Source of the DNA: a virus | Lineage: Duplodnaviria > Heunggongvirae > Uroviricota > Caudoviricetes | DNA: 16,257 nucleotides | IMG/VR virus record: IMGVR_UViG_2939127364_000003 | Reading direction: 5' to 3' (one strand) | In this document: piece by piece, positions 1,659-13,241 of the stretch | Layout of the letters: each line of letters opens with the position of its first letter | Position numbering within the stretch: the stretch's first letter is position 1 | Notes under the pieces: generated by a model | The model's database searches: none | Seen by the model: the letters and a program-made list of their open reading frames with translations, nothing else | Told to the model about the DNA's origin: nothing | Program-made: the position numbers and the translations under genes

Positions 1659-4130
1659 TTAAGAATCAGCCTGACTCGGGATCAGTTTTTGCCAGATAAC
1701 TGAAACGTATTTTGCCTGGTAACGGGCGTCATCAAGTGCATTATGGCGCTCACCTTCGAATGGAATAGCCGTTCTGGCATCGAAGTCTATGGCTTTCCCC
1801 AGCTCAACGATTGTGCGTACATCGCGATCGTTGTAGTAACGCCACGGGCAGGGGATCCCCTGCCGTTCGTATGAACGGCGCAAAATCGTGTTGTCGAAGT
1901 TGGCTCCATTTCCCCAAACCTGAACAAAAAATTCACCGGAGTTTTCGTCGATAAATTCCCGCAATTGTAACAGTGCATCATCTAACGGGATTTCATCGGT
2001 CATAATGGCAGATTGCGCTTCGCGTGATTGCTTAAGCCACCATTTAATGGTGTTCCGATCAATGACTCCGCCAGCAGTTTCCAGATCGATAGTCTTACTA
2101 AATTCCGGTCCCATATCTCCGGTTTGCGGATCGAAAAATATTGCACCTATTGAGATGATCGGGGCATCAGGATTTTTTCCCATGGTTTCAAGGTCGATCA
2201 TTAGATGGTCACACGTCCTGCTGGTGGATGTGATTTCGTGATGACCGTTCACCTTAATTGAGTGATCTGCCGTCTCGCCAGTTTCATTATCGCTATTGTG
2301 ATGCTGATTGCCGCCAGTGTTCTCCTTGTGTGGATGTTCAGCGCCTTCCATTTCCTCCGGATCATCTTCCTGAACTTCAACCTGATATTCTTCATCGAAT
2401 GTTTCTTGATATGTTGCGTCGCCCATCACCGCGCCACAATCAGGGCAGTTGCCGCCGCCGGTCTGACCGCAGGCGGTGCAGACTTTTTCCACTTCCTGTT
2501 GCGCCACTGGTTCAGGCTGTTTCGTTTCTGGCTCGTTTTGTAACGCATTTGTGCTGTTTTGTTCCGCTTTTTGGTAGTTCCGTTCCGATTTATGCTGGTT
2601 CTGGTTCACAGAATCGCGGGTCTGGATCCCCTTAACCCATTTCGGATCATTCGGGTCACTAATCCCTTCAACAAATTCACCACGTGATGCAGCAAGCAAC
2701 TTATCGGCGTCAGGCTGGCTGATATTGGCTGCCTGCATAATTTTGTTTACTTCGTCAGCGGTAACTTTTATCGGCTCTGGTTGTTCTGAATCTTCAGCGG
2801 TATCTACATTTTGCGGTAAGCCCGTGTATGTGCCATTTTTTCGGGCAAAATATTCTTCTTTTGTGATTTCAGTGGCGCCAGCAGCCAGTGCCTTATCCAG
2901 ACCAGAAAGTTTGTTTGCGCGACCGTATTTTTCTCCGTCCTTATCTGCGAAGAGGAAATAGAACGGCCCCTCACGCTCTACAGATGGTTCAGCTTCCGGC
3001 GCGGTTTCATTTTTTGGGATATCAGATACCTCAGTTTCCACTGCATCAGTTTGTGTTTCTGATGACTGGAGAACATCAACAGTGCCCAGGTCTGTTTCTT
3101 CATTCTCAAACACGCCCTTTGTCGTCAGGTATTCGCAGATATATTTGTTCAGTGCTATGGGATCTTTGTGAATGTCGATCGGACGCTCACGGACAAGGCC
3201 AAAAATAGTCTGGCGGTCGTAGCGAAGGGCATCAGGCTGTTTGCGCATTGATGCCGAGATACGCTTCCAGTCTTCGCGGTCGTTGTCGATAACTTCTTTT
3301 TTTGCCCAGCGATGGATGCTGCCGTCAATGTTTCCGGCATCCACATCACCAGGCCAGAGAGCGTAGGCCAGTTCGTCATCCAGTGTTTTCCATGTCTGCT
3401 TGTATTCGCGATGAATGGCAGCAATGACCGGGCTGATTTTTCCTGTTGAATTTTCAGTGTACTGTTGATTGGCTCTGGCGCGGGCGAGATCAACAACAGA
3501 CGTGTATTTTCCGGTTTCCTTGCGTTCACCTTCGCGACGTTTTTTCCAGATGCGCATCTCTGCCTGAATTTCGGGCCATTTAGCACCAGGAATACATTTA
3601 TGCTTAACCCACCCAATGGCGTGCAACTTAAGCTCCGGATACATGGCGTTAACTTCTGGCATTTTCATCAACGCTTCAACGATATGTCCGTCGAATGTTG
3701 CCATGTCTTCCTGCAACAATTCCTGTGCGCTAATAACCATATCAACGGTGATGTTTTCACATGTGTCGAACTTAACCATGACAGCGTTCTGTACTTCAGG
3801 GGCCAGCTTGTCAAAAGTGACGTTCATCGGATCGGATTCAGTCTCAACCGGGACAAAAGAAGCAGACTCCTCATCCCAGCGGTTTTCCTGCATATATTCA
3901 GCATCCCATGAATCGAGGGCAGGGCGGGGTATGCCAGGTTTATCCTCGCAGACAATAAATTTATAAGCGCAGTCCTGAGCAGCCGGATAATGTTCCAGGA
4001 ACTGCCAGTGAAATTTTGCTCGAGCACGGCGTTCGTCGCCAGCTTCAATGGCTGTGGCTACAGCCACAGCGCCTTCTTCCCTTGTTGCCAGTTCGTCAGG
4101 AATAGCGGCGCAAATAAAGACTTTACTCAT
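1659..4130 (-). CDS. ydfE: RecE-like prophage exonuclease (YdfE-like, 823 aa) with a central CxxC...CxxC zinc-ribbon and a C-terminal DnaQ-like DEDDh 3'-5' exonuclease domain
   Basis: Long intact ORF. Central segment (DKLLAASRGEFVEGISDPNDPKWVKGIQTRD ... CTACGQTGGGNCPDCG) matches what I remember of Rac RecE. C-terminus carries DEDDh motifs (MIDLETMG as Exo I, HNALDDARY as Exo III). Position between xis and ydfD matches the Qin layout. Confidence 0.85.
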   Translation of the reverse strand: MSKVFICAAIPDELATREEGAVAVATAIEAGDERRARAKFHWQFLEHYPAAQDCAYKFIVCEDKPGIPRPALDSWDAEYMQENRWDEESASFVPVETESDPMNVTFDKLAPEVQNAVMVKFDTCENITVDMVISAQELLQEDMATFDGHIVEALMKMPEVNAMYPELKLHAIGWVKHKCIPGAKWPEIQAEMRIWKKRREGERKETGKYTSVVDLARARANQQYTENSTGKISPVIAAIHREYKQTWKTLDDELAYALWPGDVDAGNIDGSIHRWAKKEVIDNDREDWKRISASMRKQPDALRYDRQTIFGLVRERPIDIHKDPIALNKYICEYLTTKGVFENEETDLGTVDVLQSSETQTDAVETEVSDIPKNETAPEAEPSVEREGPFYFLFADKDGEKYGRANKLSGLDKALAAGATEITKEEYFARKNGTYTGLPQNVDTAEDSEQPEPIKVTADEVNKIMQAANISQPDADKLLAASRGEFVEGISDPNDPKWVKGIQTRDSVNQNQHKSERNYQKAEQNSTNALQNEPETKQPEPVAQQEVEKVCTACGQTGGGNCPDCGAVMGDATYQETFDEEYQVEVQEDDPEEMEGAEHPHKENTGGNQHHNSDNETGETADHSIKVNGHHEITSTSRTCDHLMIDLETMGKNPDAPIISIGAIFFDPQTGDMGPEFSKTIDLETAGGVIDRNTIKWWLKQSREAQSAIMTDEIPLDDALLQLREFIDENSGEFFVQVWGNGANFDNTILRRSYERQGIPCPWRYYNDRDVRTIVELGKAIDFDARTAIPFEGERHNALDDARYQAKYVSVIWQKLIPSQADS

Positions 4131-4770: not shown

Positions 4771-4827
4771 AAAACGGCGGCAGAGCAGTCACGGAGTAAA
4801 ACTGATACCGCCAAACGTCACCAGAAA
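4771..4827 (-). ncRNA. dicF: DicF small regulatory RNA (ends approximate)
   Basis: Minus strand reads TTTCTGGTGACGTTTGGCGGTATCAGTTTTACTCCGTGACTGCTCTGCCGCCGTTTTT, matching remembered DicF including the 3' GC stem and T-run. Located between the upstream operon gene and dicB as in Qin. Confidence 0.8.
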
Positions 4828-5102
4828 ATTGATAACAGAGGGCGTTGCAGCGGGGTTGTCACTTAAGCGTATGGTCAACCTGACAACTCGGTGTCCTCAA
4901 CGGGGAAGGAATAACCCCGCCATACTTACCGCCGCGCCATTTCGCGGGTTGCCACAACCGGAAGCGCACGGTCGAATTAAATTTAACGACACCGTACAGT
5001 GAGACGAACTTCGCCGTGCGCTTTCGTGTTGTGTGCCTGCTTTTAACCACGTCAGGCGAGGTGGTATCCTTCTTATTCCGAATAACCAAGAAGGAAATCT
5101 AT

Positions 5103-5303
5103 ATGACTAAAGAAGAATTTGTCTCTTATATTTTTGATAAAACGGTTGAAATGTATGCCGCTACTTACGGGTCCTGTAATCCTCTGAATAAACCAGAGGG
5201 GAAAGATGATTTCGACAAAATTTACCGCTTCTTGGAGGACCGCTATATCAAAAGGTTAGAGGACGCAGGGATCAAATCCCCAGTGAAGTCACCATTGTCC
5301 TGA
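5103..5303 (+). CDS. Hypothetical 66-aa protein on the opposite strand inside the dicB operon
   Basis: ATG at 5103 preceded by AAGGAA with a 6-nt spacer. Translation MTKEEFVSYIFDKTVEMYAATYGSCNPLNKPEGKDDFDKIYRFLEDRYIKRLEDAGIKSPVKSPLS is of normal complexity. 3' end overlaps the convergent 5272-5649 gene by 32 nt. No family recognised. Confidence 0.4.
   Translation: MTKEEFVSYIFDKTVEMYAATYGSCNPLNKPEGKDDFDKIYRFLEDRYIKRLEDAGIKSPVKSPLS

Positions 5304-6948: not shown

Positions 6949-6971
<23 letters not shown>
6690..6971 (+). CDS. YdfX-like hypothetical protein, 3' end interrupted by IS5 (native coding sequence ends at 6948; last 8 codons are IS5-derived)
   Basis: ORF overlaps the dicC 3' end by 17 nt. 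Reading frame runs into the IS5 left inverted repeat and stops at 6969-6971. If IS5 is removed the frame would continue about 6 codons into the sequence after 8144. Confidence 0.55.
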
Positions 6972-8143
<1,172 letters not shown>

Positions 8144-8405: not shown

Positions 8406-8582
8406 ATGGCTGATTTTGGTTCAACTAAATACAACGTCGGTTTTGAAGAATGGCATGAACTGTTAATGGACTATGCAGAGTTACGTGGTGGCAGTGCTGC
8501 TGATGCTGAAGCATGGCGTGATGATTATGAAGCAGGAAAAACTCCGGTCGAAGCATATTGTGATGAGTGGGGCGATGAATGA
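8406..8582 (+). CDS. Hypothetical small acidic protein (58 aa)
   Basis: GAAGAGGAAG Shine-Dalgarno ending 5 nt before ATG 8406. MADFGSTKYNVGFEEWHELLMDYAELRGGSAADAEAWRDDYEAGKTPVEAYCDEWGDE. Stop overlaps the next ATG in an ATGA motif. Confidence 0.5.
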   Translation: MADFGSTKYNVGFEEWHELLMDYAELRGGSAADAEAWRDDYEAGKTPVEAYCDEWGDE

Positions 8583-8701
8583 GCGAGGTTAATTATCAGG
8601 AAGGGCATGAAACGGCGGGGCAAGCAAAAACAGTGGCATGGCGATATCGCTACGTGAAAAAAAGGCGTTACGGACTTTCAGGGGAAGTAGTGGTCTGGTG
8701 A
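8579..8701 (+). CDS. Hypothetical small protein (40 aa), possibly the 5' part of a frameshifted longer gene
   Basis: ATG overlaps the upstream stop (ATGA). MSEVNYQEGHETAGQAKTVAWRYRYVKKRRYGLSGEVVVW. A protein-like open frame with no start codon continues in another frame from 8691 to 8894. Confidence 0.3.
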   Translation: MSEVNYQEGHETAGQAKTVAWRYRYVKKRRYGLSGEVVVW

Positions 8702-9064
8702 CTGGAAATATGTACCGAAAAAAGAGGATTGTAACGATAGGCCGAACTATGAAATTCAGGCCTTATTCACTGCCCCGCCAGTCCCGGTTACATCAGAAGA
8801 ACTGGTTAAAGCTGTGCACTTTTATGAACAACTAAAACGCGAAAATCCACCAGCATCCGGAAACCTGATTACAGGTTCCCAGATAAGGCAATGAGCTACC
8901 TGGCGCAGAACGGGCTGATAAGTATGGGGAATGTTTTACGATGAATATTTAGACTAAAGAGTTTGTAACGCTATGTAAGTGATTTTTTCTGGTTTAGATA
9001 TTTATATGTCCGGCTAAATTGAGGTGTGTTTAAATGTTATTGCACATTGATTGTAGGGGGAATA

Positions 9065-9244
9065 ATGAAAAACGCATTGCAGTTTTTGTTTGTTGCGTTC
9101 TGGTTGTTCGCATCATGTATGCCCATCATCTTCACAGCAAGGTATATGGAAAAAGTTGATGTTTTGATATTAATATTTGGATATATAAATGCCCTTTTTT
9201 TAGGGGTGTTCATGGCGGTCATGTGCATTGAATACTGGCGGTAA
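9065..9244 (+). CDS. Small membrane protein with two predicted hydrophobic helices (59 aa)
   Basis: AGGGGG at 9055-9060 four nt before ATG 9065. MKNALQFLFVAFWLFASCMPIIFTARYMEKVDVLILIFGYINALFLGVFMAVMCIEYWR. No family recognised. Confidence 0.5.
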   Translation: MKNALQFLFVAFWLFASCMPIIFTARYMEKVDVLILIFGYINALFLGVFMAVMCIEYWR

Positions 9245-9501
9245 ATACAGCGAACTCCATTGGTTTAGTTGGATATTTACTGTGCTGGACAAAACGGTTT
9301 GCGGGGAAATCTTAGTTAAGTAGAATGACTGCGGGTGCTTGAGGCTATCTGCCTCGGGCACGAACACCAACGGCAGGTAGAGAAAAGCCCCAGTTAACAT
9401 TACGCGTCCTGCAAGACGCTTAACATTAATCTGAGGCCAATTTCATGCTAGACACATGTAGGTTAGCCTCTTACGTGCCGAAAGGCAAGGAGAAGCAGGC
9501 T

Positions 9502-9657
9502 ATGAAGCAGCAAAAGGCGATGTTAATCGCCCTGATCGTCATCTGTTTAACCGTCATAGTGACGGCACTGGTAACGAGGAAAGACCTCTGCGAGGTACGA
9601 ATCCGAACCGGCCAGACGGAGGTCGCTGTCTTCACAGCTTACGAACCTGAGGAGTAA
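9502..9657 (+). CDS. hok: Hok/Gef-family type I toxin (51 aa); a 70-aa in-frame upstream extension begins at 9445
   Basis: MKQQKAMLIALIVICLTVIVTALVTRKDLCEVRIRTGQTEVAVFTAYEPEE matches the Hok/Gef family (remembered HokD/RelF). AAGGAG 9 nt upstream. Structured 3' region and terminator follow. Confidence 0.85.
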   Translation: MKQQKAMLIALIVICLTVIVTALVTRKDLCEVRIRTGQTEVAVFTAYEPEE

Positions 9658-9726
9658 GAGACCCGGCGAGGGAGAAATCCCTCGCCACCTCTGATGTGGC
9701 AGGCATCCTCAACGCACCCGCACTTA

Positions 9727-9757
9727 ACCCGCTTCGGCGGGTTTTTGTTTTTATTTT
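9727..9757 (+). terminator. Rho-independent terminator downstream of hok
   Basis: ACCCGC-TTCG-GCGGGT stem-loop followed by TTTTTGTTTTTATTTT. Confidence 0.6.
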
Positions 9758-9876
9758 CAACGCGTTTGAAGTTCTGGACGGTGCCGGAATAGAATCAAAA
9801 ATACTTAAGTAGCGCGCAGGGATAAGAGGGATGGTCCCTTAAAGGGGAGAGCTAATTATCCGGAAGGATTCTGATG

Positions 9877-10933
9877 GGCTTTGTTGAATAAATCAGATTT
9901 CGGGTAAGTCTCCCCCGTAGCGGGTTGTGTTTTCAGGCAATACGCACGCTTTCAGGCATACCTGCTTTCGTCATTTTGTTCAGCGCTCGTACCAGGGCCA
10001 TAGCCTCCGCAACCTGACCATCGTAGTCACGCAGCGTCAGTGAACCCCCGAACAGCTGTTTTACCCGGTACATCGCCGTTTCCGCTATCGAGCGACGGTT
10101 GTAATCTGTTGTCCATTTCCACCGCGCATTACTCCCGGTCATTCGCTGATTAGCCACTGCACGGTTACGGTCTACATATTCACCGGGCCAGTAACCCGCA
10201 CCTTTTCGGGGAGGGATAAGCGCGCTGATTTTCTTACGCCGCAGTTCATCGTGACATAGCCGGGTATCGTAAGCGCCATCGGCGGCGGCTGACCTGATTT
10301 TCCGGTGGGTTTGCCGGATTAACCCGGGGAAGGCCTCTGAGTCCGTAACGTTGTTCAGCGACAGGTCAGCGCAGATGATTTCATGTGTTTTACTGTCAAC
10401 GGCGAGATGCAGCTTACGCCAGATACGGCGGCGTTCCTGGCCATGCTTTTTGACTTTCCACTCGCCTTCACCGAAGACCTTCAGCCCGGTGGAATCAATT
10501 ACCAGGTGTGCGATTTCACCCCGGGTGGGCGTTTTGAAACTGACATTAACCGACTTTGCCCGCCTGCTGACACAGCTGTAATCCGGGCAGCGTAGCGGAA
10601 CGTTCATCAGAGAAAAAATGGAATCAATAAAGCCCTGCGCAGCCCGCAGGGTCAGCCTGAATACGCGTTTAATGACCAGCACAGTAGTGATGGCAAGGTC
10701 AGAATAGCGCTGAGGTCTGCCTCGTGAAGAAGGTGTTGCTGACTCATACCAGGCCTGAATAGCTTCATCATCCAGCCAGAAAGTTATGGAGCCACGGTTG
10801 ATGAGGGCTTTATTGTAGGTGGGCCAGTTGGTGATTTTGAACTTTTGCTTTGCCACGGAACGGTCTGCGTTGTCGGGAAGATACGTGATCTGATCCTTCA
10901 ACTCAGCAAAAGTTCGATTTATTCAACAAAGCC
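9877..10933 (-). mobile_element. IS903-family insertion sequence (IS5 family), complete at 1057 bp, no target-site duplication
   Basis: 18-bp terminal inverted repeats GGCTTTGTTGAATAAATC (9877-9894) and GATTTATTCAACAAAGCC (10916-10933). Length is 1057 bp. The 9-bp flanks ATTCTGATG and CATCTAACC do not match. Confidence 0.9.
9933..10901 (-). CDS. IS903-family DDE transposase (322-aa ORF)
   Basis: [91 protein letters not shown]... matches remembered IS903/IS102 transposase. Enclosed by the matching inverted repeats. Confidence 0.9.
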
Positions 10934-12660: not shown

Positions 12661-13241
12661 TGGCATTCAGAATGAGTGAACAAGCACGGACCATAAAAAT
12701 TTATAATCTGCTGTCCGGAACTAATGAATTTATTGGTGAAGGTGATGCATATATTCCGCCTCATACAGGTCTGCCAGCAAACAGTACCGACATTGCACCG
12801 CCAGATATTCCAGCTGGCTTCGTGGCTGTTTTCAACAGTGATGAGTTATCGTGGCATCTCGTTGAAGATCATCGGGGTAAAACGGTTTATGACGTGGCTT
12901 CCGGCGACGCGTTATTTATTTCTGAACTCGGCTCATTACCGGAAAATGTCACCTGGTTATCCCCGGAAGGGGAGTTTCAGAAGTGGAACGGCACAGCCTG
13001 GGTGAAAGATGCAGAAGCAGAAAAACTATTCCGGATCCGGGAGGCGGAAGAAACAAAAAACAGCCTGATGCAGGCAGCGAATGAGCATATTGCGCCACTT
13101 CAGGATGCTGTAGATCTGGAAATCGCAACGGAGGAAGAAAACTCGTTGCTGGAAGCCTGGAAAAAGTATCGGGTGTTGCTGAACCGTGTTAATACAACAA
13201 CTGCACCGGATATTGAATGGCCAGTAGCACCTATAGGGTAA
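12660..13241 (+). CDS. tfa: Tail fibre assembly protein Tfa (193 aa)
   Basis: ATG overlaps the stf stop (TAATG). C-terminal [31 protein letters not shown] is the conserved Tfa end of lambdoid and Mu-like tail-fibre chaperones. Confidence 0.85.

Follow-up and report, generated by a model that had tools for sequence, protein, structure and literature searches.

The stretch of DNA examined here (hereafter the window) comprises the 16,257 nucleotides of IMG/VR virus record IMGVR_UViG_2939127364_000003, assigned to the Caudoviricetes, and comes from a degraded Escherichia coli prophage of the lambdoid, Qin-like type. Between the replication genes and gene Q lie two small plus-strand genes: an open reading frame (ORF) of 59 codons, referred to below as ORF59 (9065-9244), and the toxin gene hokD (9502-9657), which is set within the regulatory elements of a hok/sok locus. 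A preliminary description had reported a hok-family toxin locus preceded by an unrecognised two-helix membrane protein. Here we describe the anatomy of this region, its homologies and the coding constraint on ORF59, and argue that it very probably consists of two independent units, namely a complete hokD/sokD cassette (approximately 9291-9753) and a separate ORF59 gene. All positions are those of the window unless otherwise stated.

The hokD gene and the mok reading frame

The hokD gene encodes a protein of 51 amino acids and is preceded by the Shine-Dalgarno (SD) sequence AAGGAG (9487-9492). The protein matches the Pfam HOK_GEF family (PF01848) over the full profile (1-42) with a score of 82.9 bits against a cut-off of 22 and is 100% identical to WP_000813254.1; records with a 100% match to the queried stretch annotate it as HokD. 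The gene is therefore an intact Hok/Gef-type toxin gene, as had been proposed. The full-length form of the locus is common, with 1066 complete E. coli genomes covering at least 80% of positions 8900-9900.

The mok reading frame (9445-9657) begins with 19 leader codons and then continues in frame with hok. It matches PHROG 251 ('MokW-like host killing') with E=7.7e-33, and other records annotate its equivalent as a 70 amino acid MokW protein. The suggestion that the in-frame upstream extension corresponds to mok thus holds good, but the length given for it does not: 70 amino acids is the length of the entire frame, whereas the extension itself is 19 codons long. In plasmid R1, mok overlaps hok out of frame. 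Comparison of 9445-9501 with the same region in three other loci (L049, L089 and L087) shows how this arrangement varies. The frame is continuous with hok in the window allele and in the hokW-sokW locus of Sp5, P1-like alleles have one extra base and a mok that overlaps hok out of frame, and another Qin-type allele (L049) has a mok of 19 codons, with a TGA stop that shares bases with the hok ATG. Gain or loss of one base within GG(T)CAAGG alters not only the mok frame but also the sok -35 hexamer and spacer, giving TTGACC and an 18-nt spacer in one form and TTGCCT and a 17-nt spacer in the other.

One further feature of the toxin gene concerns its Tyr47 codon, UAC, which is followed by G (9640-9643) to give UACG, the motif of the TadA editing site. 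A-to-I editing of the hokC, hokD and hokE mRNAs is reported to recode the Tyr47 position to cysteine (2025 preprint, 10.1101/2025.08.07.668861). Recoding of this kind would permit Hok to form a disulfide with Cys30.

Predicted promoter, folding and termination of the hok mRNA

The hok promoter, read from the sequence, lies at 9299-9326 on the plus strand and is made up of a -35 hexamer TTGCGG (9299-9304), a 16-nt spacer and a -10 hexamer TAGAAT (9321-9326), so that the mRNA is predicted to start at about 9333 (±3). The -10 is held at the same position in the Sp5 (TAGAAT), PPompW (TAGGAT) and P1-like (TACAAT) loci. Both the hok promoter and the sok promoter (described below) were placed by homology and not by consensus scanning, as both are weak and fall below threshold in a scan of 8850-9900, in the case of hok because the -35 matches at only three of six positions. 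The hok promoter of plasmid R1 is also weak.

A full-length mok-hok mRNA of about 420 nt (9333-9753) is predicted, from the start of an Rfam match at 9333 to an intrinsic terminator (9726-9753) made up of a stem at 9726-9743 and a T-run; this is the terminator that had been noted 3′ of hok. The leader (9333-9507) matches the full length (1-157) of Rfam model RF01794, scoring 107.8 bits where the gathering threshold is 59. Although RF01794 is named 'sok', its match lies on the hok mRNA strand and reaches the hok AUG, and the model therefore effectively describes the leader.

The minimum free energy (MFE) fold of 9333-9750 (-172.7 kcal/mol) contains the long-range interactions expected of a hok mRNA. 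The 5′ end of the mRNA, the tac element (9333-9344), pairs with 9707-9719 in the fold-back inhibition (fbi) element (9707-9722), which is complementary to it. The underlying inverted repeat (9330-9338 and 9714-9722) is complementary at nine of nine positions across 375 nt, and the interaction amounts to 12 pairs in the MFE fold. The mok SD GAGG (9433-9436, or +101 to +104 of the mRNA) is sequestered by GCCCC (9387-9391) of the ucb or anti-SD box, the GCCCCA region at 9386-9391, with positions 9387-9389 and 9391 pairing with 9437-9435 and 9433, respectively. Together with the RF01794 score, these pairings show that the elements of the folded-mRNA control suggested earlier are present. A candidate dcb element, AGCCUC (9466-9471), complementary to the mok SD region, was placed by eye and is invariant in four aligned loci; its pairing was not confirmed by folding of truncated mRNAs (see below).

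Downstream of the toxin gene a 9-bp GC hairpin (9665-9686, with arms at 9665-9673 and 9678-9686) occupies the location previously reported for a hairpin of 8 bp. By analogy with R1, where mutations in the last 3′ stem-loop abolish Tr-hok toxicity, this hairpin is probably the last stem-loop, protecting a 3′-processed and translatable form of the mRNA.

A predicted sok antisense gene

A sok-like antisense RNA had been expected on the minus strand at around 9380-9470, with no promoter assigned to it. A promoter can be placed at 9488-9460 on this strand, with a -35 hexamer TTGCCT (9488-9483), a 17-nt spacer and a -10 hexamer TAACCT (9465-9460). The window and Sp5 hokW-sokW are identical over 9455-9500, which takes in both hexamers and the spacer. 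In the promoter-less sokW mutant the primer used, YO-421, replaces exactly TAGGTTA, which corresponds to the -10, and protection is lost; the sokW RNA has a 71-nt complementarity with the hokW 5′ untranslated region (UTR) (PMC8621323). From the fold of the minus strand and this length, a Sok RNA of about 71 nt is predicted at 9453-9383, inside the range expected earlier: an RNA of 71 nt that starts at about 9453 finishes at 9383, where GGGGCUUUU ends. When folded (-30.4 kcal/mol), the minus strand forms a long hairpin followed by a U-run, and its first 15 nt or so stay single-stranded as a 5′ tail across the mok start.

The GCGTC/GACGC hairpin that had been noticed between direct repeats is present (9404-9419, with arms at 9404-9408 and 9415-9419 around a CTGCAA loop), and the repeats prove to be exact 9-nt copies of TTAACATTA at 9394-9402 and 9420-9428. 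We estimate the expected number of exact 9-mer repeats within 30 nt at about 0.1 per kb. Relative to the Rfam consensus the window has extra bases at the apex of the ucb/SD hairpin, seen as a 16-nt insertion in the alignment, which is part of a 26-nt unit made up of one copy of TTAACATTA and a 17-nt segment, CGCGTCCTGCAAGACGC. In Sok, one copy of the repeat (UAAUGUUAA) base-pairs with the other, by A-U pairs together with two G·U pairs, whereas on the mRNA strand the positions of the G·U pairs are A·C mismatches. The direct repeats are thus the two arms of a longer Sok stem that is stronger in Sok than in its target, and the repeat-flanked hairpin (9394-9428) is the apex of the sokT/Sok stem-loop and not an additional regulatory element.

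We also considered the possibility that the hairpin and its 9-bp repeats are the footprint of an insertion sequence (IS), that is, a remnant or near-precise excision flanked by 9-bp target duplications. This was rejected, as the element is kept in the Sp5 hokW, P1-like and TA280 loci (the PPompW allele has a shorter apex instead); that the repeats form the arms of the Sok stem by way of G·U pairs also counts against it.

Relationship to characterised hok/sok loci

The closest characterised relative of the cassette is hokW-sokW of Sp5 (Sakai prophage 5, of the VT2-Sakai and 933W-type Stx phages; Takada et al. 2021, PMC8621323), with 92.5% nucleotide identity over 439 nt. The two share the extended Sok/sokT apex with its TTAACATTA repeats, the in-frame 70 amino acid mok and a prophage setting. 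They differ by several bases in the Sok 5′ tail and mok start region and in the C-terminus of the toxin (…FTAYEPEE in the window, …FVDYESEK in HokW), and their terminator regions show no homology. Their positions in the phage are also different: the window cassette lies between the replication genes and Q, with ORF59 as its upstream neighbour, whereas that of Sp5 lies near the left end, next to orf75. Experiments on Sp5 have shown that HokW is toxic, that the sokW RNA is detectable and antitoxic, that the promoter-less sokW mutant is unprotective and that hokW-sokW has a role in phage release (PMC8621323).

The hok/sok (parB) system of plasmid R1 has the same architecture, although its setting is a plasmid rather than a prophage. 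Counting from +1 at 9333, the mok SD of the window lies at +101, its mok AUG at +113 and its hok AUG at +170, within 3-4 nt of the R1 landmarks (approximately +104, +116 and +174), and 19 mok codons precede hok in both; the R1 mok SD is likewise GAGG and includes G105 and A106 (PMC9841398). The tac/fbi and ucb elements are also shared, as are the probable protective 3′ stem-loop and the predicted cis-antisense Sok. The R1 Hok protein is 44% identical to HokW, a close relative of the window Hok, and the window Sok hairpin is about 26 nt longer than its R1 counterpart. The cassette is an ordinary complete copy of the known hok/sok system whose toxin gene is already annotated as HokD.

The comparison with E. 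coli K-12 is of a different kind. The Qin prophage of K-12 belongs to the same family (rem lies 3′ of the locus in intact relatives) and its hokD gene (relF) encodes an identical Hok protein, followed by a near-identical 3′ UTR. As the preliminary description stated, hokD there follows relBE, with which it is co-transcribed, but homology to the window extends only over 9488-9876, with one mismatch. The relBE genes are fused 14 nt 5′ of the hok ATG, and K-12 has consequently lost both promoters (hok and sok) together with tac, ucb, the Sok target and the mok start. The K-12 locus also lacks ORF59. The window, on the other hand, holds the full-length form of hokD.

Truncation of a different type is seen in 39 of the 82 ORF59-bearing loci (L003, L005, L086, which is phage PhiR42_1, and 36 more), where an IS replaces hok from inside its ATG, the break falling at 9503/9504. 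The IS encodes a 437 amino acid transposase with helix-turn-helix and rve_3 domains, and flxA comes next. These disrupted alleles have an A to C change at the position equivalent to window 9488, within the sok -35 and beside the hok SD. Taken together, the IS breaks at the hok ATG and the K-12 relBE junction at 9488 suggest that disruption tends to recur around the start of hok.

A rival view is that the window cassette, though intact in sequence, is functionally silent, a relic like other chromosomal hok loci. Several observations speak for silence and so weigh against a working cassette. According to the summary given in a 2025 bioRxiv preprint, earlier tests of chromosomal hokA, hokB and hokC found no post-segregational killing. 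The host prophage is defective, crippled by two IS elements (an IS5 at 6949-8143 and a deletion linked to an IS903-like element at 9877), and the locus is often disrupted, by relBE fusion in K-12 and by an IS in the start codon in many strains. A further point against the cassette as read here is that in MFE folds of 3′-truncated mRNA the mok SD stays paired to ucb, and the published activating refolding into tac/ucb and SD/dcb pairs was not reproduced. The integrity of the cassette points the other way: it has an uninterrupted Hok ORF and the whole set of regulatory elements, and the hexamers and spacer of the sok promoter are those of the functional Sp5 locus. Furthermore, single-copy R1 hok is toxic from the chromosome when Sok is absent (PMC9841398). 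On balance we consider a silent relic rather unlikely, although it deserves to be taken seriously.

ORF59 and its relatives

ORF59 (9065-9244, plus strand) is preceded by the SD sequence AGGGGG (9054-9059) and encodes a 59 amino acid small membrane protein. A longer form of 72 amino acids, starting from GTG at 9026 (9026-9244), has poor SD spacing. The AlphaFold (AF2) model is a helical hairpin with helices at residues 2-26 and 31-58 (predicted local distance difference test score 72.5). With lysine and arginine at the N-terminus, an acidic loop and an arginine at the C-terminus, the charge pattern suggests that both termini are cytoplasmic and the loop periplasmic. No profile in Pfam, PHROGs, NCBIfam or PADLOC matches the protein at E<=1, and a literature search with ORF59 peptide strings returned no match; in GenBank it appears as a hypothetical protein of 59 or 72 amino acids on at least 1000 contigs. 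The initial view of an unrecognised two-helix membrane protein is in keeping with all of this and with the retention of the ORF in three lineages, to which we now turn.

Word-indexed protein searches recovered only near-identical copies of ORF59, and a profile search added only the copy found in E. coli TA280, which is 78% identical and is followed by an intact hok cassette (Rfam score 115 bits). An exhaustive HMMER search of 1.8 billion representatives, however, identified a gapless 59 amino acid relative with 41% identity (E=1.2e-8). A close variant of this paralog, P0042, was found on at least 1000 contigs; its setting is a decayed remnant that occupies the Rac attachment site, in the order ttcA, integrase fragment, ORF, uspF, and directly 5′ of a 5′-deleted hok pseudogene. 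Both the paralog and the TA280 copy have the same start and stop as the window copy. Qin-type ORF59 is found in 1567 of 5426 complete E. coli genomes and the Rac-site paralog in 1045. In all three diverged E. coli lineages (Qin-type, TA280 and Rac-site), ORF59 sits directly 5′ of a hok cassette or hok remnant in the same orientation.

The Rac-site remnant, which many strains carry, located between ttcA and uspF at 5001-5180 and on to about 5330 of L091 (CP042246.1; also in ATCC 11775, ST131 and F11), holds in addition fragments of an ABC-3 permease gene. Among the 30 RefSeq entries listed, the 501-bp stretch with the ORF59 paralog and the hok remnant carries no annotated feature. A possible divergent copy in E. 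coli ECMA0423 (L085; 53% tblastn identity) was not used, single-base indels in homopolymers throughout the region suggesting poor assembly or decay.

Is ORF59 a gene at all? An alternative is that it is a chance ORF in a T-rich prophage spacer and owes its hydrophobicity merely to T-rich codons. Shuffling of 8945-9332 yields an ATG-initiated ORF of at least 59 codons in 7.9% of cases, a point in favour of chance. Comparison between the lineages favours constraint. Down to 41% identity the three agree in length, start and stop, without a single indel, whereas the flanks need gaps (71% and 77% identity to TA280, with indels). Frame +1 is the only one of the six that is open in all three, and in neutral simulations frame, start and stop all survive with P=0.10 for the smaller divergence and P=0.0036 for the larger.

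Substitution patterns agree with this. Between the window and TA280 there are 10.7 synonymous and 16.3 nonsynonymous differences, a ratio of nonsynonymous to synonymous rates (dN/dS) of 0.32 and a synonymous excess with binomial p=0.011; between the window and the Rac-site paralog the figures are 24.8 and 48.2, with dN/dS 0.19 (dS being saturated) and p=0.0024. Codon position 3 is the least conserved, with identities at positions 1, 2 and 3 of 0.87, 0.93 and 0.75 against TA280 and of 0.58, 0.72 and 0.48 against the Rac-site paralog. Within ORF59 there is nucleotide periodicity (p=0.015, with T making up 53% of codon position 2) that is absent from the flanks. Copies of the Qin-type and from TA280 are preceded by a strong SD; 5′ of the Rac-site paralog there is an AGGGA motif. 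Invariant residues include W13, S17-C18, P20-I21-I22, T24, F38-G39, N42 (serine in TA280), A43-L44, E56, W58 and R59.

Against a genuine gene stand a number of observations that a chance ORF would explain. None of 40 RefSeq genomes sampled across the ranking has a feature over ORF59 from the Prokaryotic Genome Annotation Pipeline, and the consensus scan found no ORF59 promoter. In one phage record (PhiR42_1) it is an ORF on the opposite strand that is annotated; that minus-strand frame, however, has two stops in the Rac-site paralog. The Qin-type lineage shows little variation, but all five of its segregating substitutions are nonsynonymous, although two of them, I37M and Y40H, are changes to the residues of the Rac-site paralog. 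Many database copies are frameshifted or truncated, there is no Pfam, PHROG, NCBIfam or PADLOC match, and the family occurs only in E. coli and Shigella. Weighing these points against the conservation across the three lineages, the lack of which would have counted against the earlier proposal, we consider a chance origin very unlikely. Judged by its pattern of sequence conservation, ORF59 is a genuine conserved gene under purifying selection.

The 13 codons 5′ of the ORF59 ATG (9026-9064; 3541-3579 in L097, the TA280 locus) likewise form an open frame in two of the lineages, where they resemble each other (MFKCYCTLIVGGI and MFKYYYALIVGGI). At the Rac site (L091, approximately 4960-5000) the corresponding stretch is a 12-codon upstream ORF, MLNYALIVNHRD, which ends 4 nt short of the ATG. 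These 13 codons may represent a 5′ leader that is conserved, an upstream ORF or another initiation site.

Possible roles of ORF59

What ORF59 might do we infer from its form and surroundings. Being small, very hydrophobic and adjacent to a membrane toxin in a prophage, it could be a further membrane toxin, resembling type I toxins or holins and paired with a hidden antidote of its own, and some of its Foldseek neighbours are labelled membrane protein or holin. All matches of the model to viral structures in that search have E>1, however, and for a helical hairpin of this size neither the structure prediction nor the search was informative. In the scan of 8850-9900 no minus-strand promoter-like site reached the threshold (weak ones would escape), no antisense hairpin overlaps ORF59 and no Rfam match falls on it, which leaves it with no antisense or antitoxin signature at this threshold. 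It is also unlike holins in having two transmembrane helices followed by a C-terminal tail of only four residues (EYWR) and in lying outside and far from the lysis cassette. Finally, the Rac-site paralog is intact in 1045 of 5426 genomes, in a decayed remnant with no obvious partner gene. We therefore hold a second toxin to be very improbable.

The constant position of ORF59 immediately 5′ of hok, be the latter a cassette or a remnant, and its shared orientation across three diverged lineages invite the idea that the two are functionally coupled, with ORF59 providing immunity to Hok, modulating it or helping its insertion as part of a three-part module. A more specific version would see ORF59 and its paralogs as an undescribed two-helix inner-membrane family that travels with prophage hok and acts with Hok, gating or countering the pore or timing lysis. 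Most hok loci, however, are without ORF59, including those of Sp5, PPompW, P1-like elements, plasmids and K-12. Where the IS replaces hok from inside its start codon, in 39 of 82 Qin-type loci, ORF59 is intact, and the Rac-site paralog is likewise intact beside a hok pseudogene that has lost its 5′ part. The adjacency may be no more than shared ancestry of a single prophage segment, since homology reaches into the non-coding flanks. Coupling to Hok in general is accordingly distinctly unlikely in our view, and we hold the more specific version to be equally doubtful.

Prophages encode small inner-membrane 'moron' proteins, such as the superinfection-exclusion protein gp15 of HK97. Like these, ORF59 is very small, helical and membrane-embedded and is found in a lambdoid prophage outside the core modules, although it shows no sequence similarity or significant structural similarity to moron proteins such as gp15. 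Most likely, ORF59 is a prophage accessory protein of this type that acts by binding another membrane protein.

The surrounding prophage

The remainder of the window is what would be expected of a Qin-like prophage that has undergone decay. On the minus strand lie the integrase (20-1315) and exonuclease (1659-4130) genes and the DicF RNA (4775-4826; Rfam 72.5 bits), and an excisionase gene and a gene for a DicA-like repressor are also present. An Rfam IS009 match (13003-13201; 212 bits) falls within the tail-fibre-assembly gene and, like DicF, is a usual component of Qin-like prophages. In the early region, directly 3′ of the DicA-like repressor gene, a complete IS5 of 1195 bp has inserted (6949-8143, with 16-bp inverted repeats and a 338 amino acid transposase at 6981-7997). 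The gene just 5′ of ORF59 (8579-8944) is a frameshifted pseudogene in both the window and strain 13P460A, an intact version of 114 amino acids being found in TA280 (L097 2580-2924).

In intact relatives the gene order is O, DUF977, several small genes, the ORF59 and hok region, rem, ydfU and Q. In the window the locus is bounded instead by an IS903/ISKpn26-like element of 1057 bp (9877-10933, minus strand; transposase Pfam DDE_Tnp_1_5), whose 18-bp terminal inverted repeats (GGCTTTGTTGAATAAATC) are perfect and which is not flanked by a target-site duplication. On its left it adjoins the start codon of rem, into which the sequence of K-12 and other strains runs on at position 9877, and on its right the middle of a tail-fibre gene. 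These junctions indicate an IS-mediated deletion in the prophage from rem to the tail genes, and imply that the element stands in place of everything between the rem start codon and the tail-fibre gene. Beyond it come the tail-fibre and tail-fibre-assembly genes and then the host gene ydfJ.

Proposed mechanism and significance

From the anatomy of the cassette we infer the following course of transcription, RNA processing and toxicity. The weak constitutive hok promoter would give rise to the mok-hok mRNA of about 420 nt, in which pairing of the 5′ tac with the 3′ fbi, and burial of the mok ribosome-binding site by ucb, would keep the full-length molecule untranslated. Slow trimming from the 3′ end, back to the hairpin at 9665-9686, is expected to undo this lock. 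Ribosomes would then start at mok (9445) and their passage through its 19 codons would open the hok start (9502), with the resulting Hok protein entering the inner membrane and causing killing or lysis of the cell. The short-lived Sok RNA (about 71 nt), transcribed on the minus strand from its promoter at 9488-9460, would prevent this by pairing with the mok start region, both blocking translation and triggering cleavage by RNase III. By analogy with hokW-sokW of Sp5, loss of Sok upon prophage induction may allow Hok to speed lysis; alternatively, the cassette may serve to stabilise the prophage.

The hok/sok part of the locus offers nothing new in principle. What it does show, because K-12 keeps only a relBE-fused stump, is the ancestral, untruncated form of the hokD locus, and it is one in which the sok promoter can be placed through identity of hexamers and spacer with those of an experimentally tested relative. 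Were ORF59 to act with Hok after all, some of the hok loci of prophages would count as membrane modules with three components and not as pairs of toxin and antisense RNA. As it stands, ORF59 is a modest lead: it is unannotated in the RefSeq genomes sampled, even though it and its Rac-site paralog are present in 1567 and 1045 of 5426 genomes, respectively. Small membrane proteins of prophages often change host physiology or phage sensitivity, and this makes ORF59 a cheap and well-defined candidate for follow-up.

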